A DNA stretch of 64,000 bases from contig OZ246001.1 in assembly GCA_965230295.1 (NCBI GenBank), positions 2,848,001-2,912,000 on the forward strand, given 5' to 3'. This document shows, piece after piece, positions 7,176-42,836 of the stretch (position 1 is the stretch's first letter; each line of letters opens with the position of its first letter). The notes beneath the pieces were generated by a model that searched no databases, had not been told where the DNA came from, and saw nothing but the letters and a program-made list of their open reading frames with translations. Source of the DNA: Marinicella sp. Its GTDB lineage: Bacteria; Pseudomonadota; Gammaproteobacteria; Xanthomonadales; Marinicellaceae. The translations under genes and the position numbers were made by a program.

Positions 7176-7574
7176 GGCGCAGGTAATGAAAGCATGGTGG
7201 TTTACCTGAAAGGTAATAAGCCTTGCTTGAATACCGTAGCGCGTGCACTCGGTTAGGCAGATCATGTAAGAATGGCGATTTGACAAAGTCAAGAAGCCTT
7301 GATGGAATGATCGATAAGCCGTGAAGCCTTGCTGGTCGCTTCCGCATCCTGCTCACGCGACAGACCTACATCCCTGTAGGCCAGCCAGAGAGTGCAAGCC
7401 CGAAGTAGTAAGCCATGTCCGACGAGGCCGCTTTCACTTTTGTCAGGAATAGACATCCGAAGTGAGCAAACGCGAACTTGAGGTCAAATAAGAGTTAGAA
7501 GATGCTGGTTTTTTTGTGCAACAAAAAAGAAGGCATTTCTAACCATTCTCCAGAATGAAGTCCCAAGGACATTC
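7176..7574. repeat. Dispersed modular structured repeat, copy A
   Basis: Blockwise homology to the reverse complement of 26826-27424 and 48315-48378. Confidence 0.8.
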
Positions 7575-7689
7575 ATTATATAGTTCGCAATGTCGGTTAA
7601 ATTTGTGACATCGGTTGTGCCTGTTTGAATGTTCTTTGGGTACTGCAATCTGTTATTATCATGTCATTGATGACCAAGATAAGGATACT

Positions 7690-8163
7690 GTGAGCACATT
7701 CCTACTCAATGCCAAAGCCAAAGAAAACACACAAAAATGTCTGCTCCGTGGGCTGTATGCAGTGTTGATGTTGGTGATTGGTCTGAATTCTTCTTTCAGC
7801 AAAGATGAGGACCAGAACCAACTCAGTCCAGTGGTTACAGTGACCAAAAACGCCTATCAGGCCTATGCGGTCCGGAAGCTGGTCATTGATGCCATCATGG
7901 CTACCCATGATGTGAGAACTCAATTGGTAGATCAATGGCATGCAAAGGGTCATTATGATGACAAGGCCATCAAAGGATTGATGGCTGGTCAATCGATCGA
8001 CACGGTCACCGGTGTGGTGACGATTGATCTGACAACAGTTTCTGGTGCTTTTCAGGAGGGTGATGTGGTTGCCTTACACCCTGAAAATGAAGCCGGTTTT
8101 TTTACTTGGCAATGTCGCAGCAATGTCAGTTCAAATAAGGTTCCTGGTTCATGTCAAAAATGA
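7690..8163 (+). CDS. Signal-peptide-bearing pilin-head-like protein
   Basis: AAGGA RBS + GTG 7690; NAYQAYAVR...TGVVTIDL...WQCRSN...PGSCQK aligns with the pilin head of the 4338 protein. Confidence 0.65.
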   Translation: MSTFLLNAKAKENTQKCLLRGLYAVLMLVIGLNSSFSKDEDQNQLSPVVTVTKNAYQAYAVRKLVIDAIMATHDVRTQLVDQWHAKGHYDDKAIKGLMAGQSIDTVTGVVTIDLTTVSGAFQEGDVVALHPENEAGFFTWQCRSNVSSNKVPGSCQK

Positions 8164-8252
8164 CACACAAAAACACCCTTCTATGTGACTATCAACACTT
8201 ATTTTCATCCCAATACATTTGTTAAGATGATTAACTTTTTTTGAAGGGAGAA

Positions 8253-9884
8253 ATGATGAAAAAACTGTTGTTGTGCATGTTGGTTTTGGTTACGCAGGTT
8301 CAAGCCAGGAGTACCTCCAAACAAATTGATGAATTGTTGAATGGGTTGTTTGATAACAAGGGCCCTGGTGGTGTGGCACTGGTGGTCAAGGATGGCAAAA
8401 TCATTTATCGCAAGGCATTTGGGCTCGCCAATTTAGAACTGAATGTCAAGATGAAGCCAGACCACATCTTTCGCATCGGTTCTATCACCAAGCAATTCAC
8501 TGCTGTGGCCGTCATGCAATTGGTCGAAGCTGGTCAATTGGATTTGGATGCCGACATTACTGAGTACATCAAGGACTATCCCACCCATGGCCACAAAATA
8601 ACCATCAAACATTTATTGAATCACACCTCAGGCATCAAAAGTTATACAGGCATGTCCAAATGGGACAGTGAGGCGCGCAAGCGGGACTTCACCCCAACAG
8701 CGTTGATTGATTATTTCAAAGCTGAACCCATGGACTTCAGTCCAGGTGAACAATTTCGTTACAACAACTCAGGTTATGTTTTGTTGGGACACATCATCGA
8801 AGTGGTGTCTGGTGGAAGCTATGCAGAGTATATCAACAACAATATATTCAAGCCTTTGAAGATGGAGCGCTCATCCTATGGTTCCACTTCAAGAATCGTT
8901 AAAGACCGCGCTTATGGGTATGACCAAGTTGATGATACCTATAAAAATGCAGACTTCTTGAGCATGACACAGCCCTATGCCGCCGGATCATTGTTGTCCA
9001 CAGTGGATGATGTGCATACTTGGTATCAAGCCATCTTAAATGATGAACTGATCAGTGCAGAAAGTCGTGAACTGGCGCATGCCATGGGTGTACTTAATAA
9101 TGGAGAAAAAGTGGGGTATGGATTTGGTTGGAGCATTGGCAACATTCAAGGGACCCCTATGGTCGAACATGGCGGTGGTATCAATGGTTTTCTGACCGCT
9201 TCATTGGTGTTGCCAGAAGAAGATGTCTTCATTGCTGTATTCTCAAATTGTCTGTGTAATTATCCGGGTGATGTGGCCATGCAAATGGCCGGTATCGTGA
9301 TTGATAAACCTTTTGAATGGGAAAAGACCAGCCTGGAAGAATCCTTGATGGAATCTTATCAAGGGGTGTATGAAAAGACGGCTGATGATGTGCGGACATT
9401 GACTTATGTTGATGGGCAAATGTACTCATTGCGTTCTGGTGGCAGTAAGTATGCCATTCATCCTTTTGCCAAAGATCAGTTTTTCTTTGATGAAGGCACC
9501 ATGACTTTACAATTTAACCGTGATGATACCGGCCAAATCACTTCTGTGACATCAAAGAGTACAGGTCTGGATCAAACCTGGCTTTTGACTGACAAGCCAT
9601 TACCTACAGTGAATGCTGTTGCCATGGCTCCAGAGCTGTTCGCCACCTATGTGGGTAAGTATGAATTGGCGCCTGACTTTTACATCAACATATTTGCCGA
9701 AGATGAAGTCATGTATACCCGTGCCACCGGTCAGCAGAAAATTGAATTGATCGCTACATCAGACAATCAATTCACTTTGAAAGACACTGACATCAAACTC
9801 ACCCTGAACACCAATGAAAGTGGTGAAGTGTCCAGTTTGACCTTACACCAGAACGGCGATCATCAAGCCAAGAAGGTTGAGTAG
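8253..9884 (+). CDS. Serine hydrolase (beta-lactamase-related family) with C-terminal DUF3471-like domains
   Basis: FRIGSITK (SxxK), YNN (YxN), HGGG motifs, LLNHTSGI; signal peptide. Confidence 0.85.
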   Translation: MMKKLLLCMLVLVTQVQARSTSKQIDELLNGLFDNKGPGGVALVVKDGKIIYRKAFGLANLELNVKMKPDHIFRIGSITKQFTAVAVMQLVEAGQLDLDADITEYIKDYPTHGHKITIKHLLNHTSGIKSYTGMSKWDSEARKRDFTPTALIDYFKAEPMDFSPGEQFRYNNSGYVLLGHIIEVVSGGSYAEYINNNIFKPLKMERSSYGSTSRIVKDRAYGYDQVDDTYKNADFLSMTQPYAAGSLLSTVDDVHTWYQAILNDELISAESRELAHAMGVLNNGEKVGYGFGWSIGNIQGTPMVEHGGGINGFLTASLVLPEEDVFIAVFSNCLCNYPGDVAMQMAGIVIDKPFEWEKTSLEESLMESYQGVYEKTADDVRTLTYVDGQMYSLRSGGSKYAIHPFAKDQFFFDEGTMTLQFNRDDTGQITSVTSKSTGLDQTWLLTDKPLPTVNAVAMAPELFATYVGKYELAPDFYINIFAEDEVMYTRATGQQKIELIATSDNQFTLKDTDIKLTLNTNESGEVSSLTLHQNGDHQAKKVE

Positions 9885-9897
9885 TTAATTCGCTATT

Positions 9898-9986
9898 GTC
9901 ATCCCGGACCCTGATCCGGGATCCAGCGTCTTTTGGAATGTAGGCGATATTCAAAGACACTGGATACCGGCCTTCGCCGGTATGAC
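9898..9986. repeat. REP/RPE-like palindromic doublet (GTCAT...ATGAC type)
   Basis: gtcatcccggaccctgatccgggatcca ... tggataccggccttcgccggtatgac between convergent genes. Confidence 0.75.
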
Positions 9987-10050
9987 GACCTTGGTTTAAG
10001 TATCATGATCTGTTTGATGTCTTTCAAACGCAGTCTTGAAAGAATAGATC

Positions 10051-10515
10051 TTATACCTTGAACAGGTCTCCTGCTTCATGTTGCAATAACCACTGTTTCC
10101 TTTCCAGTCCGCCAGCATAACCGGTTAAAGTGCCATTGGCCCCAATCACCCGGTGACAAGGGATGATGATGGAAATCGGGTTTTTACCATTGGCCGCCCC
10201 CACAGCACGGACAGCTTTGGGGTTGTTGATGGACTGGGCCATGTCTGAATAAGAGGCCACTTGTCCATATGCGATGGTTAACAAGGCTTGCCAAACCTGT
10301 TGTTGGAAGTCAGTGCCTTGTGGATCTAGTGGCAAATCAAAGTCTTTCCTTTGGCCAGCAAAGTAATCTGTTAACTGTTCTTTGGCCAGATCAGTGATCT
10401 TATTGGAATCGATGGGTTGGCGTTGTTCCTCAACAAAATAGACGCTGCGGATGCCTCGGTCTGTGGCCGTGATTTCTACCCAGCCTATGTCAGAATTTAA
10501 ATAATCGGTATGCAT
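10051..10515 (-). CDS. ogt: Methylated-DNA--protein-cysteine methyltransferase
   Basis: GTDFQQQVW, RAVGAANGKNP, IPCHRV active site. Confidence 0.95.
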   Translation of the reverse strand: MHTDYLNSDIGWVEITATDRGIRSVYFVEEQRQPIDSNKITDLAKEQLTDYFAGQRKDFDLPLDPQGTDFQQQVWQALLTIAYGQVASYSDMAQSINNPKAVRAVGAANGKNPISIIIPCHRVIGANGTLTGYAGGLERKQWLLQHEAGDLFKV

Positions 10516-10516
10516 T

Positions 10517-11875
10517 TTATAATTGGCTCCAAAGTTGGAAGGTGAGGTAGCTGCGCCAAGGTGCAACTCGTTCTGGTTCTATGGCATGGCCTTTGATGGC
10601 TTTATCTACGCCCAAATCGCCTGCCAAAAAGATGTCGGGATCGCTCAATCCACGCAGTTTGGCATAGTTGATGGTCCAAGGCCCAATGCCTTTGATGTCG
10701 TGCCAGGTGTCTGGATCATTGGCATGTTCATGGTCAATAAAGTGGTGGGCCAAATCGCGAATCGTTTGTTTTCTGGCTCCTGGCATTTTTAAAAAATCCA
10801 GTTCACTGTTTGCAATGGCTGCTGGTGAGGGAAACCAATGTTGATCACCGCGTTGTTGCCCCAGATGTTCAACCACTTGAATGACCAGGTTTTTGGCGGC
10901 TGTTACTGAGATTTGTTGCCCCAAAATGGCCCGGATTCCAGCTTCAAAAACGGACCAGATTCCCGGGATTCTGAGACCACTGTGTAAAGTAAATCCGGAC
11001 GGTAATTGTTCTGCCAGATGGGTTTCGATGGTTTCGGTATCCGCGTCCAAGTCCAGCTGTCGCCGGATGTTGTTCAACACCCTGTGTAAATGCTTGAAAT
11101 CATGCAGTTGTAACTGAACTTCAAAAGCATTTTTCTCGGGTAAGTGTTTGGCCGTAAAGGCGCCTTGGGATTCAGCCAAAGCAAAAGTCCTGCCATAGTA
11201 ATCCGGGCCAATGGTTTCAAGTTGTGGTATCAAGCGCGCTTGCAAGAAGTTTTGTAAGCGTTGCCAGTCATAAGGTGGTCGATAAAACAATTTAATGCAG
11301 ATTTCATTGCTGGCTTGGTGACCGGTTTTACGGATTTCAGATGGCGTGAGTTTCATGGTTTTGATGAAACAATCATTGAACCGGCGCACACTGTTAAAAC
11401 CACTGGCAAATGCAATTTGATTGATGGGTAATTGGGTTTGATGTAACAACTGCTTTGCCATCAGACATTGTTGGTACAACACATAAGATTTGGGTGAAAT
11501 GCCCAGATGCTTGACGAACAGTTGCCTCAAGTACCGGTCGCTGACACCCAAATACTCAGCGAATTGATGCATCGATTGGTTTTCTAAACGGCCGGCATCA
11601 ATCAATTTGATGGCTCGTTGCAACAAGGCTTGACTGCCCATCCAAGCGGCTGATTGGGGAGCGCTGTCAGGACGGCAACGCAAACACGGTCTGAAACCTG
11701 CTGCAGCGGCTTGATAAGCCGAGGGGTAATAATCAACATTGGATTCTTTCGGTGGTGTGGCAGGGCAGATGCTGCGGCAATAAATGCCAGTGGTTTTTAC
11801 CGCAGTAAAAAAGCGGCCATCGAACCTGGCATCTCGTGATAATCTGGCTTTTCGACAAACTTCTTGACTGAGCAC
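10517..11875 (-). CDS. alkA: Ada metal-binding/AraC-AlkA fusion DNA-3-methyladenine glycosylase
   Basis: TTGIYCRSIC, GFRPCLRCRP, AraC HTH, RAILGQQIS, KGIGPWT HhH, PWRSY. Confidence 0.92.
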   Translation of the reverse strand: MLSQEVCRKARLSRDARFDGRFFTAVKTTGIYCRSICPATPPKESNVDYYPSAYQAAAAGFRPCLRCRPDSAPQSAAWMGSQALLQRAIKLIDAGRLENQSMHQFAEYLGVSDRYLRQLFVKHLGISPKSYVLYQQCLMAKQLLHQTQLPINQIAFASGFNSVRRFNDCFIKTMKLTPSEIRKTGHQASNEICIKLFYRPPYDWQRLQNFLQARLIPQLETIGPDYYGRTFALAESQGAFTAKHLPEKNAFEVQLQLHDFKHLHRVLNNIRRQLDLDADTETIETHLAEQLPSGFTLHSGLRIPGIWSVFEAGIRAILGQQISVTAAKNLVIQVVEHLGQQRGDQHWFPSPAAIANSELDFLKMPGARKQTIRDLAHHFIDHEHANDPDTWHDIKGIGPWTINYAKLRGLSDPDIFLAGDLGVDKAIKGHAIEPERVAPWRSYLTFQLWSQL

Positions 11876-11963
11876 TGCTATAAATAAAATGATTGACTGG
11901 TCTTAATTGTAAGCCAAGTAAACGAATAAACCAGCCATTTTCGGAACTGAATTCGGTGGCTCT

Positions 11964-13073
11964 CTATTCGACAGATTTTGGCTGGTAGTTGATTTCTTCA
12001 GTTGTGGTAAATAATTGCCATAAACCAGGATCGATGTCTTTGAATAAAGCTTGAAAACGCAAGTTATCTGCGCTTTCATTGGTTACATTTCGGATTAAAA
12101 TTTGTTCTATTTGTTGCGGGAATTGTTGTTGTATCTTGGCATAAATTTCAGGGTCATACTCGCCACTGTCACCAACCAGGATGAATGTTCTGTTGGGATA
12201 CCTTGTTAGAATTTGTTTGATTTGTGGTGGCTTGGTTTCGGTGCTTTTGACAAACAGGTTTAACAAGCTGCTGTCCCTGAAACGAAAAGCTTTCAATGCA
12301 TAGTCTGCCATTGGAAAACCTTCTTTTTCAATGGCTGCTGAAAGGGCAGGATACAATTGCCATGGGCTTGATGAGACAAAGTGTAAAGCACCATCAGCTC
12401 GTAACCAGTGCCGGTACTTTTCAGCCATGCCTGGCACCAAAGCAAAGTCTTTGTAGAATGTGTTGTACAGCAATTGCTTGCGATCAGTCACGCTGGAAAT
12501 CTTGATGGTGTCATCAATGTCACTGATGATTGATACGCCATGCGGGTCGATTAAACTGACATGACCGGTGAATACTCGGGTATCGCCATCAGCCAATACA
12601 GCTTCAAAGGTCAGTTGAGCGGTCTTGGTGGCTGTTTGCATGACATCGGCATCCACCGATAAAACCCGTGAGAAATGACCATTTTCTGCCGATTCAGGTA
12701 TGGCATAAGTCCTGTCAGCAAAGCGGATGACAACAGTTTTACCCCGTTCATTGTCTGCCAGTAAGGCATTGACTCGATGATCAAAGTTCCGTTGATTATC
12801 GGGAGAAACCTCCAATCCATACGTGGTTTCGAGGGCCGATTGAATCAAGGCTTTTCTGACTTTAGAGTCTTCTGCTTCAAAGACCCAACCATGAATGGGC
12901 ACCTGCCATTGATTGCTGTCCTGGTTGAACCAAGCACTGGTGTTGAAGAAGACCAAGGTTTCATCAGATTTTAATTCGCTCACTGGGCCCGCCAACAATG
13001 CCTGGGTTGCCAACATGAATAGTAATGTGCCTATGAGGTTCAGTCTTTGTTGCATGGGTTCAAAAGTTTCCAA
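11964..13073 (-). CDS. App1-family phosphatidate phosphatase-like protein (DUF2183)
   Basis: SIISDIDDTIK, FVSSSPWQLY, ILVGDSGEYDPEIY; signal peptide; exact start uncertain. Confidence 0.85.
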   Translation of the reverse strand: METFEPMQQRLNLIGTLLFMLATQALLAGPVSELKSDETLVFFNTSAWFNQDSNQWQVPIHGWVFEAEDSKVRKALIQSALETTYGLEVSPDNQRNFDHRVNALLADNERGKTVVIRFADRTYAIPESAENGHFSRVLSVDADVMQTATKTAQLTFEAVLADGDTRVFTGHVSLIDPHGVSIISDIDDTIKISSVTDRKQLLYNTFYKDFALVPGMAEKYRHWLRADGALHFVSSSPWQLYPALSAAIEKEGFPMADYALKAFRFRDSSLLNLFVKSTETKPPQIKQILTRYPNRTFILVGDSGEYDPEIYAKIQQQFPQQIEQILIRNVTNESADNLRFQALFKDIDPGLWQLFTTTEEINYQPKSVE

Positions 13074-13238
13074 GGTTAAATTCTGTGTTCATTATCGCAG
13101 CTTTGAGGCCAGGGTCAATCTCAGAATAGTTGAACCACTTTGCAAAATTGAGTGTAGCCATAAATTTGCCACAATAAAACATTTTATCAACACAATAATT
13201 AAATATACTGAAGACTGATTTATAACGATTGAACAGCA

Positions 13239-18164: not shown

Positions 18165-18175
18165 GCAAGTTTGAA

Positions 18176-20542: not shown

Positions 20543-20697
20543 TTTCGTACGGCTTTTTATACACTTCACAATTAATTTGATCTAATTTTCTCTTTTTGCG
20601 TTACTTTTATTGGTAACCACGGTTTCCGCCAATAAGATAGATTGATACAACATTCATTACTGACGGGAGACCACTTATTTTTTCTGATAACCACATC

Positions 20698-22066: not shown

Positions 22067-22080
22067 TCCAGGAGAACATA

Positions 22081-22995: not shown

Positions 22996-23008
22996 CATCA
23001 GGAGTAAC

Positions 23009-24753: not shown

Positions 24754-25155
24754 ATGTTTGAGTACCATGGGTGGATCGCCATTAAATTTAAATCAGAGAA
24801 AGGTGATAAAAAAGATGACGAGTCATTGGAGCAGATCAGAAAAATTAAAGCTTTGATTGATAAGTATTCAGAAAAAGTGGCCAAATTTGAAATTTTCTAT
24901 CAAATGGGCAAACCCTTTGTCAGATTAGATGGGTGTTTGTCTCACTATCAAGGATGGGTGCTTAAGTTATTTTTCGCCATTGCTAAACTGGCCAATAACA
25001 GTGAAGGCATCTTGTTTATTCAGGATGAAGACAATCCGTTCTTAAACAGCCGATTCCGTATATGGCAAATGATGGAAGGTGAGGTTTTATCAGGTGACAT
25101 GACCTTTTTCCCGGACATATGTAATCCAGTTCATAATGGACAACATGCTGCATGA
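24754..25155 (+). CDS. Imm7-like immunity protein
   Basis: MFEYHGWIAI start, G-x-L-S-H, SEGILFIQDED, FRIWQMMEGE pattern recalled for the Imm7 family. Confidence 0.65.
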   Translation: MFEYHGWIAIKFKSEKGDKKDDESLEQIRKIKALIDKYSEKVAKFEIFYQMGKPFVRLDGCLSHYQGWVLKLFFAIAKLANNSEGILFIQDEDNPFLNSRFRIWQMMEGEVLSGDMTFFPDICNPVHNGQHAA

Positions 25156-25200
25156 ATGGTTTAAGTATTCTTTGATCAATTAAGGCGGCTGGCTCATCAA

Positions 25201-25407
25201 ATGCAAAAAGGACAAACATTATTACAACAAGTGATTGATGAGAATCATGCATCAAGCAACAGTGAACGCATTTTGTTGAGAGATAAGATGAAGCAAATAC
25301 AAACTGAAATGGTTAAATTGACTTTTGAAGCTGAAATGGACAAACGGTTGTTTTCATTTTTCTCAAAACAATTGAAGAAGGTCAAAAAACAGCTGTCATT
25401 GTTGTGA
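25201..25407 (+). CDS. Hypothetical 68-aa helical protein
   Basis: ORF track; charged coiled-coil-like sequence. Confidence 0.4.
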   Translation: MQKGQTLLQQVIDENHASSNSERILLRDKMKQIQTEMVKLTFEAEMDKRLFSFFSKQLKKVKKQLSLL

Positions 25408-25521
25408 CTGATGGAGTGATTAATCAGTCCATCTTCCTTATACAATCAAATAACGCATAACAACGTGGTTTTGCTGCCGTTGGGTGGTTTGAAACTATGA
25501 GGGGGACTTGGTAAAGAGAAA

Positions 25522-25606
25522 TGGTGCCGAGGGCGAGAATCGAACTCGCACTTCCGAAGAAACCGGATTTTGAATCCGGCGCGTCTACCAATTCCGCCAC
25601 CCCGGC
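25522..25606 (-). tRNA. tRNA-Leu (CAA)
   Basis: GCCGGGGTGGCGGAATTGGTAGACGCG-CCGGA-TTCAAAA-TCCGG-long variable arm-GTTCGA-...CGGCACCA, 85 nt with encoded CCA. Confidence 0.97.
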
Positions 25607-25820
25607 ACAAGGTTGACAAGTATATAAGATTTTTCCTTGATGGCAAGTGATTTTTGTAAATATCTGATAATGTTTCCAGGTCATTGGTTAAATTTTCATT
25701 CATCCATTTCACCAGTGACCATTTTTCGAATATTTAGCGCTTGAAATCGATTGAATAATTAAGATTCGTCCTTAGTTTAACTGTGGAAAATAATAACCAT
25801 AACAGCTTTAGGAGTATGCC

Positions 25821-26135: not shown

Positions 26136-26138
26136 GCT

Positions 26139-26825: not shown

Positions 26826-27424
26826 GGAATGTTCTTGGGGCTCCATTCTGGTTCATGGTCTGACAGGTCTTCATATTTGCTGCGCAAATAAACCGACCTT
26901 TACAGACTATTGTTTGAGCAGTTGCTTCGCACTGCATGTCTGTTCCAAACAAAAGTGAAAACGACTGCTTACATGGATGTAAGTATGCAGCGATAGCAGG
27001 CAGGAATTGTTCCCAACAGTTCTCTGCATTCACCCCGTCCTGGGGATCGATGCGGTAGCTGCCGAGGCGAACATGACTTGCTACCTCGCACGCACTACGG
27101 CATTCAAATCGGGCTTCTTTATCTTCGATAAAACCGCCCAACTTTCATTACCTGTGCTATAACGCCATTCACATAAGGTTTCTTGACTTCGTCAAATCAC
27201 CATATGTTCATTGGCTATTCTCTTCGCCTCTGATTGGCTTACATGGAAGTAAGTCCTCTGAGGAGGCAGGATGCCGGTATCAGAGGTGACTACATGGATG
27301 TAGGTCTGCCGCGATAGCAAGGAGCGATAGCGGCCGCAACATCAATAGCTCACGGCTAATCAATCATTACATCAAGGCTTATTGACTCCGTCAAACCGCC
27401 ATGATTGCATGATTTGCCTAACCG
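26826..27424. repeat. Dispersed modular structured repeat, copy B
   Basis: Inverted homology to 7176-7574; internal duplicated hairpin modules; GGA palindromes. Confidence 0.8.
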
Positions 27425-27463
27425 GCTCGGCGGGTCAAGCTGCTCAGCAGCTTTCCTTTCTGA

Positions 27464-32023: not shown

Positions 32024-32028
32024 CATAA

Positions 32029-32073
32029 AATCACGTCAGGTTTGAGGTTATTTGCCTTAAACCTGACGTGATT
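32029..32073. terminator. Long inverted repeat between convergent genes
   Basis: aatcacgtcaggtttgagg ... ccttaaacctgacgtgatt. Confidence 0.6.
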
Positions 32074-32086
32074 GAGCGAGTTAAAT

Positions 32087-33676
32087 TCATCCTTTAGATA
32101 CAGCAAAGTCAAAACCATCTTTGTAAATAATATCCGGGTTGAGGTAAAACACCTCAAGTGCTGCTCCAGAGTCGATTTCATTATCAGCGGATTCATCACC
32201 CGGTATGCCAATCAGTAAGGTGGGTCCAAGGTATCCATCACCATTGGTAAAGGAAAAACCAAAATTATCATCGGCTTGTTCGCCACTCAAAGAGCTGCTT
32301 TCATTGAAATCCAGACCGGTTGCTATGCCAGGGATGATATAAACGATACCTGATTGGTTACCATTGAATGACTCGAATGGCACACCCACAATCACTTCTG
32401 CCATTTGATTGACATCCAAGTCTGCTGTACTGACACTGAAACCAAACCAGTCATTAGTTTCTACAGAACCGGAAATGCCTGAAGTTTGTTGGCTGAAAGT
32501 CAGACTACCTGTGCTTGTCAGCCCGGTCATTGAACCAGGCAGTAAATGTGCTGCGCCGGCGTCAACGATGTTGCCTATGTCTTCTAATGGGGTACCGATG
32601 ATGAGGTCATCATGACCGTCACCATTGACATCACCTGTTGCCAAAGCATACCCAAAAACATCCAATGGTTCAGTGACTGCTCCGGTTATGTCGCTTTGTT
32701 CCCAGATTTGATCATCGTTGATTAAACCCAACGAGTTGCCATAAATTACTTGGACTAAACCGGCAAATGTATCTCCACCAATGGTTTCATAAGGCACACC
32801 AATGGCCAAATCATCATAGCCATTGTTGTTGAAATCACCTGCAGCTAAAGAAAATCCAAAAAAGTCATTGGTTTCACTGGTGCCAATGATGTTTGGGCTC
32901 GATTGGCTTAGGCTGTCTCTGATGATGTGGCTCAGTCCCATGTTGGGTGTATTGACTTGTCCGCCGTAATAAATAAACACTGAACCTCCATTGTCCACGC
33001 CAGGAAAATTTTGACCAGGAGCACCGACCACCAAATCTGCAAACCCATCTTGGTTGAAATCTCCTGTGGTGAGTGATAAACCGAAGTTGGCAAATGCTTG
33101 TCTGTCAGTCCCCACTTGTGCATCGGCATCGGCATCAATGAATTGTCCTGTGACTGATATACCGTTGGCTGAGCCATAGTGAACATAAACGGCACCTGTG
33201 TCTTCAAATTCAACCATGGCTTGATTGATGAAGTTTTTAAAAGGGGCGCCGACTGCCAAATCATCAAAGCCATCGTTGTTATAGTCTCCAGTGGTTAAAC
33301 TGGTGCCAAATTCTTCACCTTCTTCTACAGCGCCACTGAGCAACAACATGCTGTCTGTATTGGTGATGCCATATTGTGCTCCATACATCACTATGATGGC
33401 ACCCGCGTCAGATAAAAAGAAGTTTCTTTTGGGGGCGCCAAAAACCACATCCATCAACCCATCTCCATTGAAATCGCCACTGGCCATTGTGTGACCAAAT
33501 CGATCACCCGGTTGTGTTTCATTGGCTCCTGCATTGGCTTGATCTATGTCCCATAAGGCACCAAAAAATGGATCAATGGTTTTTGTTGCCAATTCACCTG
33601 GAATGGATTGTGCAGTGGATTGTTCGCCAGATAAACACATGGCTGCAAAAAATGCTCCCGCAATAAATTTATTCAT
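32087..33676 (-). CDS. Secreted FG-GAP (integrin-alpha-like beta-propeller) protein with DIIYKDGFD C-terminal tag
   Basis: AGGAG RBS; signal peptide; ~7 FG...GDFNxDGxxDLxxGAP repeats. Confidence 0.88.
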   Translation of the reverse strand: MNKFIAGAFFAAMCLSGEQSTAQSIPGELATKTIDPFFGALWDIDQANAGANETQPGDRFGHTMASGDFNGDGLMDVVFGAPKRNFFLSDAGAIIVMYGAQYGITNTDSMLLLSGAVEEGEEFGTSLTTGDYNNDGFDDLAVGAPFKNFINQAMVEFEDTGAVYVHYGSANGISVTGQFIDADADAQVGTDRQAFANFGLSLTTGDFNQDGFADLVVGAPGQNFPGVDNGGSVFIYYGGQVNTPNMGLSHIIRDSLSQSSPNIIGTSETNDFFGFSLAAGDFNNNGYDDLAIGVPYETIGGDTFAGLVQVIYGNSLGLINDDQIWEQSDITGAVTEPLDVFGYALATGDVNGDGHDDLIIGTPLEDIGNIVDAGAAHLLPGSMTGLTSTGSLTFSQQTSGISGSVETNDWFGFSVSTADLDVNQMAEVIVGVPFESFNGNQSGIVYIIPGIATGLDFNESSSLSGEQADDNFGFSFTNGDGYLGPTLLIGIPGDESADNEIDSGAALEVFYLNPDIIYKDGFDFAVSKG

Positions 33677-33904
33677 ATAAGACTCCTGTTTTAGTGTGAA
33701 TAACTTAGAAGATGCATGTTTGTTGCTAATCGCACATGAGAAGTGGCAATTAATCATGCACAGGTGTCACGTTGAAAAAATTTCAGTGGGCTGTTCAAAG
33801 CATCATTGAAGTATCAGTCTGGATACATACACTGGGTATATAGCGAATCATGAGGGTGATGGATCAGTAAGGGCACAGTTTTCTGAAGCAAAGAAGCGTG
33901 TGAA

Positions 33905-36831: not shown

Positions 36832-36907
36832 AATTAATGTCTGCTATTGAACAGACAATCATTATACACGTTAGCGTTGTCAGCTGCAGTGATCAGGAAT
36901 ACAAAGG

Positions 36908-37504
36908 TCAGTCCGTTGACCAGGAAGCAGTTTGTTCGGTGTTCTTGCCTTGCTTACATGGTTTGAAGGCGCAACTGTTGAGCGGGTCTCTGGTAACAAA
37001 AGTGCCATCAGCGCATTTTTTCACATCATCTGTACAAATCATGGGCTTGGCAGGTTTTGTTTCATTCGCACCAAGGCAAGGCTTGAAGGCACAATTGTTA
37101 TTGGAATCCCTGCCAACATAGCTGCCGTCAGGACATTGTTTTACTTCTTGGGTACACATCATCGGTACTTTAGGGAAGGATTCTTTGGGGTCAGGAGTTG
37201 AATCGACCTGATCAGGACATGCCTTAAACTCACAATGGTTGTTTTGGTCCCTGAAGACGAAAGTACCATCAGGACATTGCTTCATGTCTTCTGGGCATGC
37301 CGTGACTTCGCGAGGTGCCGGGCAATCAAAAAATTCGCATTGATTGTTGGGGTCACGGCCGACAGTTTGGCCGTCGTCACACACCTTCAAGTCTTTGGTG
37401 CACGCTTTGAATGCAATGGCTTCTTCTGTGGTTTCTGATTGTTTGCTTTGTTGTTGACACGCAGACAGGGCCACCCATAGGGTGACAAGTATGATATTTT
37501 TCAC
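36908..37504 (-). CDS. Lipoprotein with four Cys-rich repeats
   Basis: Lipobox LSA-C; 4x C-x6-C-x13-C-x4-C (e.g. CTQEVKQCPDGSYVGRDSNNNCAFKPC). Confidence 0.8.
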   Translation of the reverse strand: MKNIILVTLWVALSACQQQSKQSETTEEAIAFKACTKDLKVCDDGQTVGRDPNNQCEFFDCPAPREVTACPEDMKQCPDGTFVFRDQNNHCEFKACPDQVDSTPDPKESFPKVPMMCTQEVKQCPDGSYVGRDSNNNCAFKPCLGANETKPAKPMICTDDVKKCADGTFVTRDPLNSCAFKPCKQGKNTEQTASWSTD

Positions 37505-37983
37505 AGGCCTTTTTCCCAGAACATGGCGGCACCATTGCTGTCATCCAGCTTGTATTGGTTGAAACCATATTTTTCATAAGCGGATTGAGCGATGGAGTTG
37601 CCTTCCAAGACCTCAAGGGTCAGTTTGCAACAGCCTTTGTCTTTGGCGAGCTGTTCCACCTCATCAAACATTTTTCGACTGATGCCCATACGGCGGTACT
37701 CACTGGCCACCACCACATCATGGATGTTCACCAATGGTTTGCAGGCAAATGTAGAAAACCCTTCAAAGCAATTGGTGAGGCCAGCTGGTTGGCCATCCAC
37801 ATAAGCAATTAAGCTGAATGCATCGGTACGCTTGGCCAACTCCGGGACCAAGTTTTGTGCAGTGAAATCACTCAAGGCCACACCACCGCCCATCGGGTCG
37901 GTGGCATAGCAATCTAACAACTCAATCATGTGTAAAGCATGTTGTGGGTTGTCGTAATCAACTTGAACGATTTCAATACCCAT
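37501..37983 (-). CDS. GNAT-family N-acetyltransferase
   Basis: NIHDVVV, YRRMGIS, KLTLEVLEGN, YEKYGF. Confidence 0.9.
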   Translation of the reverse strand: MGIEIVQVDYDNPQHALHMIELLDCYATDPMGGGVALSDFTAQNLVPELAKRTDAFSLIAYVDGQPAGLTNCFEGFSTFACKPLVNIHDVVVASEYRRMGISRKMFDEVEQLAKDKGCCKLTLEVLEGNSIAQSAYEKYGFNQYKLDDSNGAAMFWEKGL

Positions 37984-37986
37984 TGA

Positions 37987-38763
37987 TCAGTCGTTTTGGA
38001 ACCTGGCCAACAAACGCAACAGCTCGATATACAACCAAACGATGGTAACCATCAAGCCGAAAGCACCATACCATTCCATAAATTTAGGTGTGTTTTGCTC
38101 TGAAGCCCGTTCAATGAAGTCAAAATCTAAAACCAAACTCAACGCAGCAACACCAACAATCACCAGGTTTAAACCGATGTTGAACAGGCTGTTGTTGCCG
38201 ATTTCAAAATAACTTGGGGCGGCGCCAAAGAAATGAGCAATGAAGCTCACCAAGTAAAACAAGCCGATGCCCATAATGGCAAAAGCCATGATTTTTTTGA
38301 ATGTGCCGGTCACTTTGATGATGCCAGTGCGGTAGCAAAATAACATGGAAAACATCACAGCTGCTGTCAATCCCAAAGCTTGTATGACTAAACCTGGGTA
38401 AACAGATTCAAATACAGCTGAAATGGCACCAACAAATAATCCTTCGAAGACTGCTACAATGGGTGCTCCAATGGGTGCTGTGGTGGGTTTAAAAGAAACC
38501 ACCAGACTGGCAACCAAGGCACCAATAATTCCTGTTATAACCAGCCCATAGCCCAAACCTGGGTTGGTCAGGATGGTGTTCCAGGAAAAGGCACCCACTG
38601 CCACCACGATCATCAGCAAAATACCGGTTTTATTAACCGTGCCATTGATCGTCATGCGTTGGTTGTCGTCGACTATCAGTTCATCCACTGGTCCAAGACT
38701 CAGGGATTGTTGTTCCATTTTAGCCATCGCCGGGTTCGATGATTTCATTCCATTTAAGTTCAT
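37987..38763 (-). CDS. Bax inhibitor-1/YccA-family membrane protein
   Basis: SSNP, MTINGTVNKT, ~7 TM, LDFDFIE, EWYGAFGLMVTIVWLYIELLRLL. Confidence 0.88.
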   Translation of the reverse strand: MNLNGMKSSNPAMAKMEQQSLSLGPVDELIVDDNQRMTINGTVNKTGILLMIVVAVGAFSWNTILTNPGLGYGLVITGIIGALVASLVVSFKPTTAPIGAPIVAVFEGLFVGAISAVFESVYPGLVIQALGLTAAVMFSMLFCYRTGIIKVTGTFKKIMAFAIMGIGLFYLVSFIAHFFGAAPSYFEIGNNSLFNIGLNLVIVGVAALSLVLDFDFIERASEQNTPKFMEWYGAFGLMVTIVWLYIELLRLLARFQND

Positions 38764-38941
38764 AGGTCATACCTCATTAATTAATTTTAGGGTTAAATCA
38801 TTATAGCAATGATTCATTCATGCGCTCAAGTCATTATATGGGTGCCATTCGTCACGAATCAATCATTACTGGCTGCATTTTCTTGCTTCATCTGTAACTC
38901 TTTGGCCTTTCTTGCGTTTATCGGGTAACAGCTTTGTTACA

Positions 38942-40039
38942 TCACGACCTTTGATTCATATATGACTTGGCTTGGGTCATGATGTTAACAAAAGCAGCTT
39001 GGTTGTCCTGATGAATCATCTGTATGATTCTTTGCACCGCATCTGACAGGGCATTGAGTGTGGTTGGACTGTAGTGATTGAGTTTTTGAATCTCGTAATA
39101 CAGGTTTGGATTCTCATTGGAGACACTGCTGGCAATACCCAACTGGGCATCGAATGTGGTGCTGGAAAGTTTGGACAGTGCATCAGCAGCTTCACCAGAT
39201 TCAGACAGCACTGTCATAAAGGCGATGTTGATCACGTGTGATAAACCAAGTACATAAGCAATGAGGCGGTCATGATCTTCGAATTTCATGTCGATCCGTT
39301 CTGCCATGGTCGGTTGAAACAGTTGTTTGACCTGATTGACCGCTTCTTCATTGCCCATATCGATAAAAATCACATGTTTACCTGACATCAACTGAATGTC
39401 TGGGCCAAACATGGGGTGAATCGACACCACTTTACAGCCAGAGTCAGCCAATTGCCGCAAAGGTAAGCGCAACGGGCTTTTGATGGAACTGATGTCCAAA
39501 ACAATGCCAGATGGTTTTAAATGGCATAATTGTTGAATGATCTCTGCACTTTTTTGAATCGGGGTGGCAATGATGACATAGTCATGGTCCAAATCTATTG
39601 AGGTGTAATCAGCAACAAAATTTTGTTGGTTACTCAACGGTTCCAGGTCGCTGATATAAACATCAAAGTTTTGTGAGGTCAGAAAGTGGGCAAACCATTG
39701 TCCCATTTTGCCATTACCACCAATGATCAATGCTGATTTGTTGGAGCCATAATTGGATTCTTTCACTTTCTGAATTTCTTGTTTACTCAGTGATGTTTCT
39801 ATCACCAGCTCAAAGATACGTTGTGCGATTTCAGGATCCAAGCCTTGGTCCCTGGCATGATTTTTAATCTTATTAATGACCTGTTTTTCCCGTTGATAGT
39901 CCCTGGTGGGTGAATTTGTGCTCAACTTCACGTTTCCGATTTGTTCAACATTAAACTGACGTTCAGCTATCAACGATATAATTTGTCCATCGATTTCATC
40001 TAATTTTCTGCGTAATTGGTCAAGTTTTTTATTATCCAT
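38942..40039 (-). CDS. tyrA: Bifunctional chorismate mutase / prephenate dehydrogenase
   Basis: AroQ LRRKLDEID...RDYQRE; GGNGKMG; DISSIK; HPMFGP; HDRLIAYVLGLSH. Confidence 0.88.
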   Translation of the reverse strand: MDNKKLDQLRRKLDEIDGQIISLIAERQFNVEQIGNVKLSTNSPTRDYQREKQVINKIKNHARDQGLDPEIAQRIFELVIETSLSKQEIQKVKESNYGSNKSALIIGGNGKMGQWFAHFLTSQNFDVYISDLEPLSNQQNFVADYTSIDLDHDYVIIATPIQKSAEIIQQLCHLKPSGIVLDISSIKSPLRLPLRQLADSGCKVVSIHPMFGPDIQLMSGKHVIFIDMGNEEAVNQVKQLFQPTMAERIDMKFEDHDRLIAYVLGLSHVINIAFMTVLSESGEAADALSKLSSTTFDAQLGIASSVSNENPNLYYEIQKLNHYSPTTLNALSDAVQRIIQMIHQDNQAAFVNIMTQAKSYMNQRS

Positions 40040-40119
40040 GATTGATTGTCAGCAAAAATAGGAGTAGATTGTTACAGTATATGAATTATTTATCAAATGT
40101 TTTATCTGGGAGAAGAGAT

Positions 40120-40821
40120 ATGAAAAAATTATTATTAATTATTGCGGCCGTGATGGTGTCAGGCTCTGGAATAGCCAAAGACCGTGCTGTTGTTGCAGTG
40201 TTGGATTTCACCAACGAAACCCGTGCCCATTGGTGGCAGACCGATGTGGGTCGTGAGCTCGGTGGCATGTTGGCCAATGAATTGGTTTCAACTGGTGCTT
40301 TCAAAGTGGTCGAAAGACAAAAATTAAACAGTGTGTTGAGCGAACAAGATCTGGGAGCCTCAGGGCGGGTATCAAAGTCTTCAGCTGCCAAAATGGGTAA
40401 GGTTACCGGTGCACAGTACTTGATCACTGGTAATGTGGCAGCCTATGAAGAAAACACTTCTGGTGGCGGTGGTGGTATCAGCATCAAAGGTATTTCATTG
40501 GGCGGCAAGCGCAACAAGGCTTATTTGGCCATTGATTTACGCGTCGTTAACGCAACCACTGGTGAAGTTGAGTATGTCAGAACCGTTGAAGGCCATTCAA
40601 AAGGTGGTGGTATGAGCGTGGGATTCCACCGTGGTGGTTTTGGTGGTTCTTTAGGCGGCCATAAAAAGACCCCTGCGGGTAAAGCCATTCGTGCCGCTTT
40701 GATTGAAGCCACAGATTACCTGGCTTGTGTGATGTATGACCAAGACAGTTGTATGAAAGAGTACCGTGACAAAGAAAGAAATCGTCGCAAGAAATCTAAA
40801 TCTTCGTTGTCACTTGATTGA
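40120..40821 (+). CDS. CsgG/HfaB-family protein
   Basis: VAVLDF, FKVVERQKL, GAQYLITG, IDLRVVNATTGEV; Sec signal peptide. Confidence 0.8.
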   Translation: MKKLLLIIAAVMVSGSGIAKDRAVVAVLDFTNETRAHWWQTDVGRELGGMLANELVSTGAFKVVERQKLNSVLSEQDLGASGRVSKSSAAKMGKVTGAQYLITGNVAAYEENTSGGGGGISIKGISLGGKRNKAYLAIDLRVVNATTGEVEYVRTVEGHSKGGGMSVGFHRGGFGGSLGGHKKTPAGKAIRAALIEATDYLACVMYDQDSCMKEYRDKERNRRKKSKSSLSLD

Positions 40822-40840
40822 TCAGCTGATTGAGTCAAAT

Positions 40841-40871
40841 AAAAAAGACCGATTGAATCGGTCTTTTTTTT
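40841..40871. terminator. Bidirectional terminator
   Basis: aaaaaagaccgatt-g-aatcggtctttttt. Confidence 0.8.
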
Positions 40872-40888
40872 GGTCAAAATTTTATTAT

Positions 40889-41407
40889 TTAGGGAGTCGT
40901 TGGCGGCAAGATCACAGTATCAATCACGTGAATGACACCATTTGAAGTGCCAATGTCAGTGGTCACAACATTGCTGTTACCATTCAATACCACACCACCG
41001 TCTTTGACCATGATGTCTACGTTGGAACCTTGAACCGTTGTGGCTTCAGTTAAATTGACCACATCTTTGGCTTTCACTTTGCCTGATACCACGTGATAAG
41101 TCAGGATGGCAGCCAATTGATCTTTGTTCTCAGGTTTCAATAAGTTTTCGATGGTGCCAGCTGGTAACTTGGCGAAAGCCTCATCAGTTGGGGCGAAAAC
41201 AGTGAACGGGCCATCACCCTTTAATGTATCAACCAAACCAGCGGCTTTTACAGCTGCCACCAAGGTATTGAATGAGCCGGCAGATACCGCGGTATCAACA
41301 ATGTCTTTGCTCTTTTTCTTGTAGCTACCACCGGCGATGGCACTCATGGTGAAAATGGCCATCATGGCGATGGTTAATAGTTTTGAAGTTTTGGTCATAA
41401 TATTCAT
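40889..41407 (-). CDS. Fasciclin (FAS1) domain protein
   Basis: [30 protein letters not shown]. Confidence 0.95.
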
Positions 41408-41580
41408 TTTTATTTCTCTTATAGTTAGGTAAAAAGTCTTTACATCCGATTTTAATTAAATCGTGCTGTACATATTAAAACCGCGTTTGTCGATGATCTG
41501 TGAGGAATGGAGTGGAATCAGTTCACGCTGAATTCACAGGAAGCAGATAGATTAAATACCCTTGTTAAATTCAGGCTGTA

Positions 41581-42129
41581 TTGCTTATGATTGGATTATT
41601 ACTGACTGTTTTCATCAGCAGTCACCATGACAACATGAATACTTTTAACTTCAACCAGCTTAAACAGGATCAGTACATGATTCTCAATGATGGGGTGATG
41701 GGCGGTCGATCTCAAAGCCAATTGATCAAAGACGAAGGGGCAGCTAACTTCAGCGGTACCGTTTCATTGGAAAACAATGGTGGATTCGCCTCAGTCAGAA
41801 TGATTTGGCCATTTATTTCTGATGATCAAGCAACATCAGCAACAGTGTTGAGCTTAAAAGTCAAAGGTGATGGCTTGCGCTATCAGTTCAGGCTGCGCAC
41901 CAACCGTGGTTTTGACGGTGCCGCCTACAGTTATGCTTTTGATACCGTCAAAGACCAAGAGCAAACGGTCTATATTCCAGTGGATCAATTTGTGCCCACT
42001 TTCAGAGGGCGGGTTCTGAGAGACATGCCTCAATTACGTTTTGCTGATGTTCAGCAAATGGGGGTTTTGATTTCAGACAAGCAAGTGGGTGGGTTTTCTA
42101 TAGAGTTGTACCAAGTCTCATTGGATTGA
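41581..42129 (+). CDS. CIA30-family protein
   Basis: NDGVMGGRS, SLENNGGFASVR, GDG, PTFRGR, ISDKQ. Confidence 0.9.
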   Translation: MLMIGLLLTVFISSHHDNMNTFNFNQLKQDQYMILNDGVMGGRSQSQLIKDEGAANFSGTVSLENNGGFASVRMIWPFISDDQATSATVLSLKVKGDGLRYQFRLRTNRGFDGAAYSYAFDTVKDQEQTVYIPVDQFVPTFRGRVLRDMPQLRFADVQQMGVLISDKQVGGFSIELYQVSLD

Positions 42130-42150
42130 GGTTGTCACCAAGTCCCCATT

Positions 42151-42179
42151 AAAAAAGGCCACAACATGTGGCCTTTTTT
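42151..42179. terminator. Bidirectional terminator
   Basis: aaaaaaggccaca-aca-tgtggcctttttt. Confidence 0.8.
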
Positions 42180-42194
42180 ACGAGATTATATAGT

Positions 42195-42836
42195 CAAGTA
42201 CGATTCCTTAATGGCTTTCGGTTGGTCGCACAGCGATCAGAGAAAACTCATTTAAGCCATCACGTGCAGCCGGTTTTGTTGTGTAGCAACAAAGAAGTCA
42301 AGTACGATTCCTTAATGGCTTTCGGTTGGTCGCACAGCGATCAGAGAAAACTCATTTAAGCCATCACGTGCAGCCGGTTTTGTTGTGTAGCAACAAAGAA
42401 GGCAAGTACGATTCCTCAATGGCTTTCGGTTGGTCGCACAGCGATCAGAGAAAACTCATTTAAGCCATCACGTGCAGCCGGTTTTGTTGTGTAGCAACAA
42501 AGAAGGCAAGTACGATTCCTTAATGGCTTTCGGTTGGTCGCACAGCGATCAGAGAAAACTCATTTAAGCCATCACGTGCAGCCGGTTTTGTTGTGTAGCA
42601 ACAAAGAAGGCAAGTACGATTCCTTAATGGCTTTCGGTTGGTCGCACAGCGATCAGAGAAAACTTATTTAAGCCATCACGTGCAGCCGGTTTTGTTGTGT
42701 AGCAACAAAGAAGGCAAGTACGATTCCTTAATGGCTTTCGGTTGGTCGCACAGCGATCAGAGAAAACTTATTTAAGCCATCACGTGCAGCCGGTTTTGTT
42801 GTGTAGCAACAAAGAAGGCAAGTACGATTCCTTAAT
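42195..42836. repeat. Tandem array of six 104-bp units plus an 18-bp partial unit
   Basis: Units start at 42195, 42299, 42403, 42507, 42611, 42715, 42819; only single-base variants; last partial unit overlaps the lpdA stop. Confidence 0.97.

Follow-up and report, generated by a model that had tools for sequence, protein, structure and literature searches.

A covarying hairpin with a fixed asymmetric purine loop in dispersed repeat modules of Marinicella and related families

Background

In a stretch of 64,000 nucleotides of Marinicella sp. (assembly GCA_965230295.1, contig OZ246001.1, positions 2,848,001 to 2,912,000), here called the window, small hairpins of one design recur in three non-coding loci: an outer stem, the triplet GGT or GAT, an inner stem with its loop, and the triplet GAA or TAA in front of the closing half of the outer stem. 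The stems differ from hairpin to hairpin, whereas the triplets are kept. What keeps such an arrangement constant? The hairpin, termed H1, could fold as RNA or as single-stranded DNA (ssDNA), it could serve the host or an element that spreads, or the likeness could be fortuitous. To distinguish these possibilities, the hairpins were analysed in the window, in the genome under study (G000, 4,008,074 bp) and in related genomes.

Results

H1 is a covarying structure that folds on one strand

A first-pass annotation of the window had listed hairpins of this kind, and all of them are present in the sequence at the positions and on the strands given. A strict scan (three or more outer pairs, then G[GA]T, 5-10 inner pairs among which G.T is accepted, a loop of 3-7 nt and [GT]AA) recovered 7196-7222, 7274-7298 and 7500-7538 on the plus strand of the first locus, copy A; 27112-27138, 27177-27201 and 27376-27400 on the minus strand of the second, copy B; and 42373-42403 with four more copies on the plus strand of the third, a tandem array. 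The consensus is yGC-G(G/A)T-TT(T)nnn-loop-nnn(A)AA-GAA-GCr. The covariance model R1 was derived from 28 hairpins, 26 taken from other species of Marinicella and two from the window. With filters off, it produced 14 matches at E <= 1 in the window, three in copy A, four in copy B, five full and one partial in the array, and a weak extra one at 33414-33456 on the minus strand (E = 0.044) that had not been listed before. No R1 match was obtained on the opposite strand of any repeat in the window.

It had also been proposed that the stems covary around a fixed internal loop, and two alignments bear this out. In A1, an ungapped alignment of 28 hairpins, 26 of them from other Marinicella species, 86.1% of the cells are paired compared to 61.5% after shuffling, and the covariation score is 0.676 compared to 0.199. 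None of 500 shuffles reached the observed values, and controls with slid positions scored 0.11-0.14. Outer pairs 5-8, which the scan does not require, are paired in 86-96% of cases, with many double changes. A2 consists of 48 matches (47 distinct) from other genera and families fitted to R1. Here, 94.9% of the cells are paired versus 71.3%, the score is 0.553 versus 0.123, again 0/500 shuffles came close enough to reach it, and slid controls stayed at or below 0.128. The pairing percentages of the inner stem and of the first three outer pairs are inflated, because both alignments were chosen or aligned using the structure.

The annotation had further noted G-T mismatches on the strand carrying GGT. 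Among 60 unique hairpins, 52 G.T stand against 6 A.C oppositions (p = 3e-10) in a scan that allowed both, and therefore the GGT strand is the folding strand. Predicted stabilities favour this strand over its complement in 129 of 132 hairpins when RNA parameters are used and in 127 of 132 when DNA parameters are used. A U.G pair occupies outer pair 3 in 33 of the 47 outgroup matches. H1 is thus a real covarying structure, specific to one strand, whose asymmetric purine loop stays constant.

Copy number in the genome

The strict scan of the whole genome returned 181 instances, with the loop combinations GGT/GAA (90), GAT/GAA (65), GGT/TAA (18) and GAT/TAA (8). The inner stem has the form TT...AA in 142 of them, and these comprise 69 distinct versions if flanks are counted. 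R1 yielded at least 123 matches, a lower bound since only 150 of 2,058 candidates were scored. The three loci of the window are therefore real, but they are only three among well over 100 loci, and the family extends genome-wide and order-wide rather than being confined to them.

Controls with shuffled DNA had been suggested, and real counts far exceed the shuffled ones. The pattern GGTTTN{5,21}AAGAAG occurs eight times in the window, with 0.70 expected and none of 100 shuffles reaching eight; six of the eight occurrences are copies in the one array. In the genome, the pattern CGGTTTTN{5,19}AAAGAAG occurs 64 times, compared to 0, 0 and 1 in three shuffles. When all hairpins with a 3x3 internal loop were collected irrespective of its sequence, 18,201 were found, with a mean of 4.4 per triplet pair; the reverse-complement forms of the H1 loop, TTC/ACC (63) and TTC/ATC (54), rank first and second among all triplet pairs.

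Modules, units and composite elements

H1 is the apex of a longer module, a rod-like imperfect hairpin of 66-85 nt, with ATGAA opposite TGAAT as a second purine loop. Such modules are found singly, in tandem arrays with a period of 104-122 nt, and stacked in about 116 composite elements consisting of a 5' arm, a variable number of modules and a 3' arm. Blastn searches with copies A and B and a short copy of the window gave 133 merged genome intervals with a total of 31,715 bp. Composite 3' ends (GAATGAAGCCCCAAGAACATTCC, then TT) number 116, and 78 of these can be paired with a 5' end (GGAAAGCTGCTGAGCAGCTTGAC). The elements fall into size classes of 147, 234, 267, 354, 418, 451, 483, 550 and 631 nt. 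The form of 147-152 nt is the bare pair of arms, and this basic element aligns from end to end; longer composites carry co-oriented modules of about 70 nt with H1 at the apex of the longer hairpin. By crude gene calls, the composites are located between genes, and their orientation relative to the flanking genes (22, 21, 21 and 14 in the four classes) is without bias.

Apart from GGAA/TTCC shared by the ends, terminal inverted repeats (TIR) were not detected in the composite elements; the best value for target site duplications (TSD) was 13 of 78 for a 2-mer, compared to 7.0 after permutation; and a conserved flank was not seen. An autonomous master copy was not found either: only two 5' ends had a far 3' end, and the 4.1-kb interval holds ordinary genes.

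The second context is a unit of about 105-112 nt in which a variant hairpin H2 is followed by CTCAT, an H1 whose outer stem is long, and (A)ATG. This unit is present singly or arrayed at several genome sites and is conserved across species; the array of the window is one such case, and its unit aligns with units of about 110 nt in other species. According to crude calls of open reading frames (ORFs), the majority of single units follow a gene of the opposite strand, 7-13 nt beyond its stop codon.

Arm material also occurs by itself. At genome positions 902117, 1199636 and 2341473 solo perfect palindromes GGAAAGCTGCTGAGCAGCTTTCC were observed, two of the three with complementary flanks (tacaaa...tttgta), and each resembles the 5'-arm hairpin of a composite standing alone. 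A 122-nt tandem array of four to five units at 1313014-1313524 consists of composite 3'-arm material (GAATGAAGACCCAAGACCATTCC) and showed no H1 in the strict scan.

The repeats also affect the assemblies. Contigs of the sequencing runs X1 and X2 break at the repeats, and the joints inside copy B correspond to family members with other sets of modules. Contig ends of another Marinicella genome, G021, belong to the same composite family, and no transposase was seen there.

The loci of the window

Copy A is a composite element on the plus strand at 7152..7577 (genome 2855152-2855575). Its 5' arm hairpin (GGAGAACTGTCGGACAGTTC...) is followed by three hairpin modules and the 3' arm (...GAATGAAGTCCCAAGGACATTCA). 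Copy A lies between an ORF of 187 aa on the minus strand without Pfam match and a pilin-like gene on the plus strand. All three H1 hairpins, which were also detected by the strict scan, are on the plus strand: ggt-GGT-ttacct-GAA-aggtaa-TAA-gcc at 7187..7231 (49.7 bits, E = 1.2e-11 with R1), ggc-GAT-ttgac-AAA-gtcaa-GAA-gcc at 7265..7307 (27 bits, E = 4.9e-5) and agatgct-GGT-ttttttgt-GCA-acaaaaaa-GAA-ggcattt at 7495..7543 (24.7 bits, E = 2.4e-4).

Copy B (26826..27456, minus strand, 631 nt) contains a 5' arm GGAAAGCTGCTGAGCAGCTTGAC..., four H1 hairpins and other modules, and a 3' arm ...GAATGGAGCCCCAAGAACATTCC; it is flanked by a ferritin-like gene and a gene with an FGE-sulfatase domain, both on the minus strand. 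In the blastn listing, eight other genome copies match it over about 620-645 nt with 94-96% identity. Its hairpins, all on the minus strand, are ggc-GGT-ttgac-GGA-gtcaa-TAA-gcc at 27367..27409 (38 bits) and ggt-GAT-ttgac-GAA-gtcaa-GAA-acc at 27168..27210 (34.6 bits), then aagttgggc-GGT-tttatc-GAA-gataaa-GAA-gcccgattt at 27103..27147 (58.4 bits), which in the R1 listing is present in identical form and with equal score at 23 places in the genome, and a degenerate variant at 26858..26906, listed previously as 26866-26898, in which the first inner pair is T.T (15.4 bits, E = 0.12). Neither the ORF of 128 aa inside copy B nor any other ORF overlapping copies A and B has a Pfam match. The two copies are related to each other as inverted-repeat pairs, and a short relative of both, a member of the composite family with 3'-arm material only (CACTTTTGT..ACAAAAGTGAATGAAGTCCCAAGAACATTCC), is located at 48307..48382 on the minus strand.

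The tandem array at 42195..42843 on the plus strand comprises 6.2 copies of a 104-nt unit with 99% identity according to TRF. Each unit contains, in this order, H2 (GGT/GA), CTCAT, a canonical H1 and (T)TAATG. R1 matches start at 42364, 42468, 42572, 42676 and 42780, with 19.4 bits each, and a partial one covers 42271-42297. The variant hairpin reported earlier in the array, tttc-GGT-tggtcgc-aca-gcgatca-GA-gaaa, can be read from the sequence at 42216..42245 on the plus strand and again every 104 nt; it does not reach an R1 score at E <= 1. The array is flanked by a CIA30-like gene and lpd. Its final partial unit overlaps the lpd stop codon (42832-42834, minus strand), and the unit resembles the last bases of lpd.

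A few other repeats were observed in the window. Between the CIA30-like gene and the array, at 42151-42179, a GC hairpin with a run of A on one side and of T on the other (aaaaaaggccacaacatgtggcctttttt) has the look of a bidirectional terminator; it is absent from the output of a simple terminator scan. Between two ORFs, at 50498-50589, lies an inverted repeat of 35 nt (TGTCATTGCGAGGGAGGGACGACCGCGGCAATCTC and its partner, 22 nt apart) that is unrelated to H1 in sequence. A 33/66-nt tandem repeat at 58742-58880 and 65-nt stretches spaced 204-225 nt apart at 32581-33299 are in-frame-looking parts of long ORFs and probably specify repeated protein domains.

Distribution of H1

R1 matches were detected in 22 of 23 other Marinicella genomes, with at least 132 in G021, at least 70 in G019, 36 in G023 and 26 in G015, but 0 in G003. 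Copy B as DNA matches 20 of the 23 and none of 17 genomes outside the genus. R1 also gave a few matches in another genus of the family and in other families. These are true H1 modules, GC-rich and with shared flanks CAGCGCAGGCAA...TGCCGT..GCGCGTG. In a survey of the order, in which 41 candidates were scored per genome and genomes served as samples, so that a module not found is not necessarily absent, 32 of 151 genomes had matches at E <= 1e-4, namely 12/17 in family f1, 8/17 in f7, 7/17 in f8 and 4/15 in f9; none was found in 84 sampled genomes of eight other families. About 16 invariant bases persist over four bacterial families while the stems change.

The pattern CGGTTTTN{5,19}AAAGAAG occurred 0-5 times per genome in 400 sampled Gammaproteobacteria, like the reversed-pattern control, in a sample that includes G180 and G286, neither of which any conclusion depends on; the pattern misses relatives because those with GC-rich genomes have only TT..AA. 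The idea of a family restricted to one genus was rejected, as the covariance model finds H1 in these GC-rich relatives.

A comparison with Rfam, which had been recommended, returned no match: at the gathering threshold only tRNA was reported (tRNA-Leu in the window), and runs by E value on the array, copy B and nine outgroup loci gave nothing relevant. A 44-nt consensus of the 3' arm had 0 matches in a collection of genome contigs that may omit the genome under study. In titles and abstracts of the literature, no description of repeats in Marinicella was encountered, and two 11-nt core motifs led, judged at the same level, only to unrelated texts. The H1 repeats are a large undescribed non-coding family in Marinicella and three related families of the order.

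Copies linked to tRNA and rRNA genes

Outside the window, an intact gene for tRNA-Ser(tga) at genome 25052-25142 is followed by a pseudo-copy (locus to 25640). In the pseudo-copy, an H1 hairpin of 67 nt interrupts the tRNA precisely at the junction of positions 26 and 27, where no more than 1 nt is duplicated, and other modules of about 70 nt occupy the anticodon loop and the T-loop. Comparison of this filled copy with the intact gene reveals that the module behaves as a discrete insertion. In the same region (25052-25640) a separate fragment of T-arm and 3' end is split by a fourth module.

The succession of D-arm, H1 and anticodon-arm is also present in G024 and four other Marinicella species. 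Among these tRNA-Ser-linked copies the 6-bp basal helix differs in nearly every base and pairing is kept. H1 also follows the 5' part of a tRNA-Thr in G030 and, as three tandem repetitions, in G474. All tRNA-linked H1 copies are antisense to the tRNA, and on the GGT strand ..CAG directly precedes the insertion in both tRNA targets, which represent two target types.

Further modules were noticed near RNA genes. At L176 (G482), a 5S rRNA gene identified by an Rfam match is followed by a module about 110 nt further downstream. The left flank of L180 (G505) is near-identical to that of L176; the rRNA search covered L176 and not L180. At L149 (G030) and L145 (G024), an intact tRNA gene is located 50-80 nt from the module, which directly adjoins a duplicated 5' part of the tRNA. 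H1 was on the strand opposite to the RNA gene in all cases checked.

Features bearing on DNA or RNA

Among unique hairpins, triloops of the form C(GNA)G cap 37 of 47 in the outgroup set, 28 of 44 in the set from Marinicella relatives and 11 of 42 in the genome under study, and 22 of the 47 outgroup matches contain the exact motif GCGNAGC. This motif is described as an extraordinarily stable DNA mini-hairpin (PMC13037366; PMC3201870), and GNA triloops closed by C-G are a hallmark of DNA (PMC3201870). In the genome under study, 80 of 116 elements have the GGT strand as the lagging-strand sequence (p = 5e-5), and in 36 of 116 it lies on the lagging-strand template. Promoter-like sites were not found in the array region, and the counts of promoter-like and terminator-like sites showed no excess over shuffles. 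A role as intrinsic terminator was dismissed, as no T tract follows the hairpin.

Discussion

A module probably recognised in trans

The explanation that we favour on balance is that H1 is the conserved apex of a 66-85 nt rod module, the unit of a family of REP/BIME/BOX-like repeats, whose GGT strand folds, rather as ssDNA than as RNA, and is recognised by a protein acting in trans. That the motif is recognised by a protein had already been suggested, and this is the most economical reading of about 16 invariant bases kept over four families while the stems change. Only the GGT strand would be under selection to fold, and the invariant part would be the likely recognition surface: the C-G closing pair, the asymmetric loop of G(G/A)T over GAA, in which G.A, R.A and T.G would face each other, the two or three T-A pairs, the U.G frequently present as outer pair 3, and the C(GNA)G triloop. 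The module may have been amplified locally into tandem arrays, dragging along the end of a neighbouring gene. In Marinicella, modules would have been stacked in one orientation between conserved 5' and 3' arms, giving the composites of 147-631 nt.

Folding as ssDNA seems somewhat more probable than folding as RNA because of the C(GNA)G triloops, the missing orientation bias towards flanking genes, the replication-strand bias in the genome under study, and the antisense position of single and tRNA-linked copies. Going further, H1 could belong to an order-wide ssDNA hairpin element, independent of Y1 HUH enzymes, that enters structured targets such as the tRNA 26/27 junction without target duplication and is read through its G.A/R.A/T.G loop by a new hairpin-specific recombinase or nuclease, or by an exploited host replication factor. 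This more specific proposal is speculative, and we regard it as doubtful.

Several observations weigh against recognition and mobility of ssDNA as outlined here. A1 and A2 were selected or aligned by structure, and the inner stem and the first three outer pairs are thus paired by construction. In copy B as a whole, each of the two strands folds well (z = -4.2 and -4.75). The strand bias did not recur in G474 (11 lagging, 7 leading) and G512 (10 lagging, 11 leading, three ambiguous matches dropped), both complete genomes from another family. The mean advantage of the GGT strand is -4 to -7 kcal/mol with RNA parameters and -0.9 to -2.7 kcal/mol with DNA parameters, which is unfavourable or at best neutral; the 5' arm of copy B contains a weak promoter-like site (9/12 matches) directed along the GGT strand; and G.U pairs and purine loops are equally at home in RNA, so that a role as RNA may be considered. 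Genes enclosed by elements are ordinary housekeeping genes (DoxX, MsrB, GST, GAF, MscL, Slp) or have no Pfam match. A partner protein for H1 was not found. Searches of the genome under study for IS110, TnpB, reverse transcriptase (RT) and DDE_Tnp_1 had no result, and only one rve and one Y1 match were obtained; tyrosine recombinases gave eight matches. Finally, the orthologous tRNA-Ser copies are conserved, which could mean host function and not mobility.

Alternative explanations

A fortuitous likeness, or simple common descent of the copies from one repeat without structural constraint, would account for the many near-identical copies, among them the hairpin present at 23 places and the six pattern matches within one array. 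It is contradicted by the covariation, shuffle and triplet-pair controls, by the diversity of stems in this genome alone, with over 25 distinct inner and many distinct outer ones, and by further stems in 23 other species and three other families with pairing and loop kept, and can hardly be upheld. A role of the modules as RNA, be it a structured non-coding RNA or element of an untranslated region, a sponge resembling CsrB/RsmZ or a REP-like stabiliser of mRNA, has more in its favour: covarying stems, G.U pairs on one strand only, the much stronger preference for the GGT strand with RNA than with DNA parameters, the co-oriented and multivalent modules in elements and arrays, and the promoter-like site in copy B. 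Composites are, however, indifferent to the orientation of flanking genes, and single units and arrays are mostly located just past a stop codon of the opposite strand, while tRNA-linked copies are always antisense. Read-through RNA from genes to which the units are antisense would therefore carry the weaker strand. The array region without promoter-like site, the site counts not above shuffles, the missing Rfam family and the C-G-closed GNA triloops, a DNA hallmark (PMC3201870), also speak against RNA, and the replication-strand bias would be hard to explain for it. Altogether, an RNA function appears rather unlikely. Nearly the same applies to a DNA structural site serving the host, for example a single-strand initiation or priming signal or a dock for nucleoid, gyrase or repair proteins, kept by selection and copied by local duplication only. 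The orthologous tRNA-Ser copies, which have persisted with compensatory changes in six or more genomes from two genera, would fit, as would the recurrence of copies downstream of 5S rRNA and beside tRNA genes in other families, the replication-strand bias, the mini-hairpin motifs at the phage G4 origin, RSF1010 ssiA and N4 promoters (PMC13037366) and the binding of several host proteins reported for BIMEs (PMC2817692). The copy number, 0 to at least 132 R1 matches among species of one genus, argues against it, and so do the 84 of 84 sampled genomes from eight other families in which the module was not found, the bias not reproduced in G474 and G512, and the insertion into a tRNA pseudo-copy and mosaic stacking of modules, which look like selfish spread. 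We consider such a host site unlikely, slightly more so than RNA.

The first-pass annotation had also raised the possibility that H1 is the recognition hairpin of a trans-acting HUH-type mobiliser. H1 would then be of REP/REPIN type or derived from IS200/IS605, and would be moved in trans on ssDNA at the replication fork by a Y1 HUH enzyme, either RAYT or TnpA. An imperfect hairpin with one folding strand, composites without TIR and TSD, ..CAG 5' of the insertion in both tRNA targets and the inverted module pairs together with Y1 genes in some genomes of genus g8 would be in line with this, as would a RAYT-like Y1_Tnp gene in the genome under study (187 aa, HVH motif; genome 1669261-1669824, L001 1300-1863), which is outside the window and the only one. 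This gene, however, is flanked by different palindromes, of the type GTTGAC-TTCA-GTCAAC / GTCGAC-TGAA-GTCGAC, a small family with tens of copies whose core GACTTCAGTC occurs 41 times on both strands. An orthologue with at least 50% identity was found in four of 24 Marinicella genomes, including G003, the one with 0 R1 matches. Conversely, Y1_Tnp was not found in the motif carriers G021 (99% complete), G019, G015, G016, G459 (97% complete), G535 and G528, and G459 is the genome with the best-scoring R1 matches. Among nine Y1 loci, one has an R1 match at E <= 1e-3, a GAC variant, and one other is marginal (E = 0.056); the three Marinicella RAYT loci (L096-L098) gave no R1 match. In the genome under study, the folding strand is mostly on the leading-strand template, opposite to the rule for IS608 (PMC6006769). 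A Y1 HUH partner is thus not supported, because Y1_Tnp was not found in several carriers, including rich ones, the RAYT palindromes differ and only one of nine Y1 loci has a match, to a variant; we judge it improbable.

Significance

Dispersed hairpin repeats such as REP, BIME, BOX, ERIC and Correia elements are common, and for most of them we know of neither the partner protein nor the mode of spreading. On present evidence, the H1 repeats are not a categorically new system. They are a well-defined target for finding a new hairpin-binding activity, and their notable features are the conserved asymmetric purine loop, the order-wide spread, the precise insertion site in a tRNA and the fact that no partner was found. 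About 16 invariant bases of a non-canonical loop, covarying stems, a clear folding strand, a tRNA site that fixes the ends of the unit and numbers from 0 to at least 132 matches per genome within one genus provide a handle, and the partner should therefore be findable by pull-down or phylogenetic profiling. For annotation it matters that the elements break short-read assemblies, create spurious ORFs and appear to overlap the 3' ends of genes such as lpd.

Comparison with known systems

Integron attC sites, XerCD/dif-like sites, uptake sequences, K-turn, loop E and UAA/GAN motifs were dropped by inspection of the consensus alone. REPs are defined by GTAG 5' of the hairpin; many H1 modules have CCGTAG on the 3' side and not 5' of the stem. 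REP, BIME and REPIN sequences (PMC2817692; PMC6006769) resemble the H1 repeats in being short imperfect extragenic palindromes with more than 100 copies, about 0.8% of the genome, which occur singly, clustered or as mosaics, in having a conserved asymmetry that orients the hairpin, and in a fold relevant as ssDNA. They differ in that no cognate RAYT is flanked by H1 and Y1 was not found in many carriers, in that all H1 modules within each of copy A, copy B and the array point the same way instead of alternating or forming inverted doublets, inverted pairs being seen only in genus g8, and in that the rod of the H1 module is far longer, at 66-85 nt, and contains three small loops rich in purines.

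In architecture, the closest system is BOX of S. pneumoniae, boxA-(boxB)n-boxC, in which fixed 5' and 3' modules enclose a variable number of internal ones; the reported size of 67-637 bp compares with 147-631 nt for the composites, and TIR and TSD are reported for BOX (PMC3049150), neither of which was found in the composites. BIMEs (PMC2817692) are close in architecture as well, and in their single-strand logic the H1 repeats follow REP and IS200/IS605 elements (PMC6006769). Both are intergenic, with about 100 copies, an internal module that folds independently of the arms and no dedicated transposase known. BOX belongs to another phylum, its comparison with H1 is one of architecture and not of sequence, and the internal H1 modules are heterogeneous, sharing a structural motif only. 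Like MITEs, the H1 elements are small, non-coding, structured and present in many copies, but they are without TIR and TSD. IS200/IS605 elements and the transposase-less PATEs likewise have subterminal hairpins but neither TIR nor TSD, act strand-specifically and are linked to replication (PMC6006769). In contrast, except for one RAYT-like gene, neither Y1 TnpA nor TnpB was found in the genome under study, whose strand bias is opposite to the lagging-strand-template rule given in that source, while G474 and G512 have no bias. As to a target tetra- or pentanucleotide, ..CAG precedes H1 at two tRNA target types, and no conserved flank was seen for the composites.

The DNA mini-hairpins with GCGNAGC at the phage G4 origin, RSF1010 ssiA and N4 promoters have the same apical C(GNA)G triloop and would likewise act in single-stranded or extruded DNA (PMC13037366). 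They are single functional sites of phages and plasmids, not dispersed chromosomal families, and have no counterpart to the GGT/GAA loop or the rod. CsrB/RsmZ sponge RNAs also contain many tandem copies of one small hairpin in a non-coding stretch; in H1, however, the conserved part is an internal loop and not a GGA loop, there is no Rfam match, and copies are dispersed in both orientations. Since the H1 repeats lack the features that define REP-RAYT systems, MITEs and PATEs, they represent a distinct family among the dispersed hairpin repeats.

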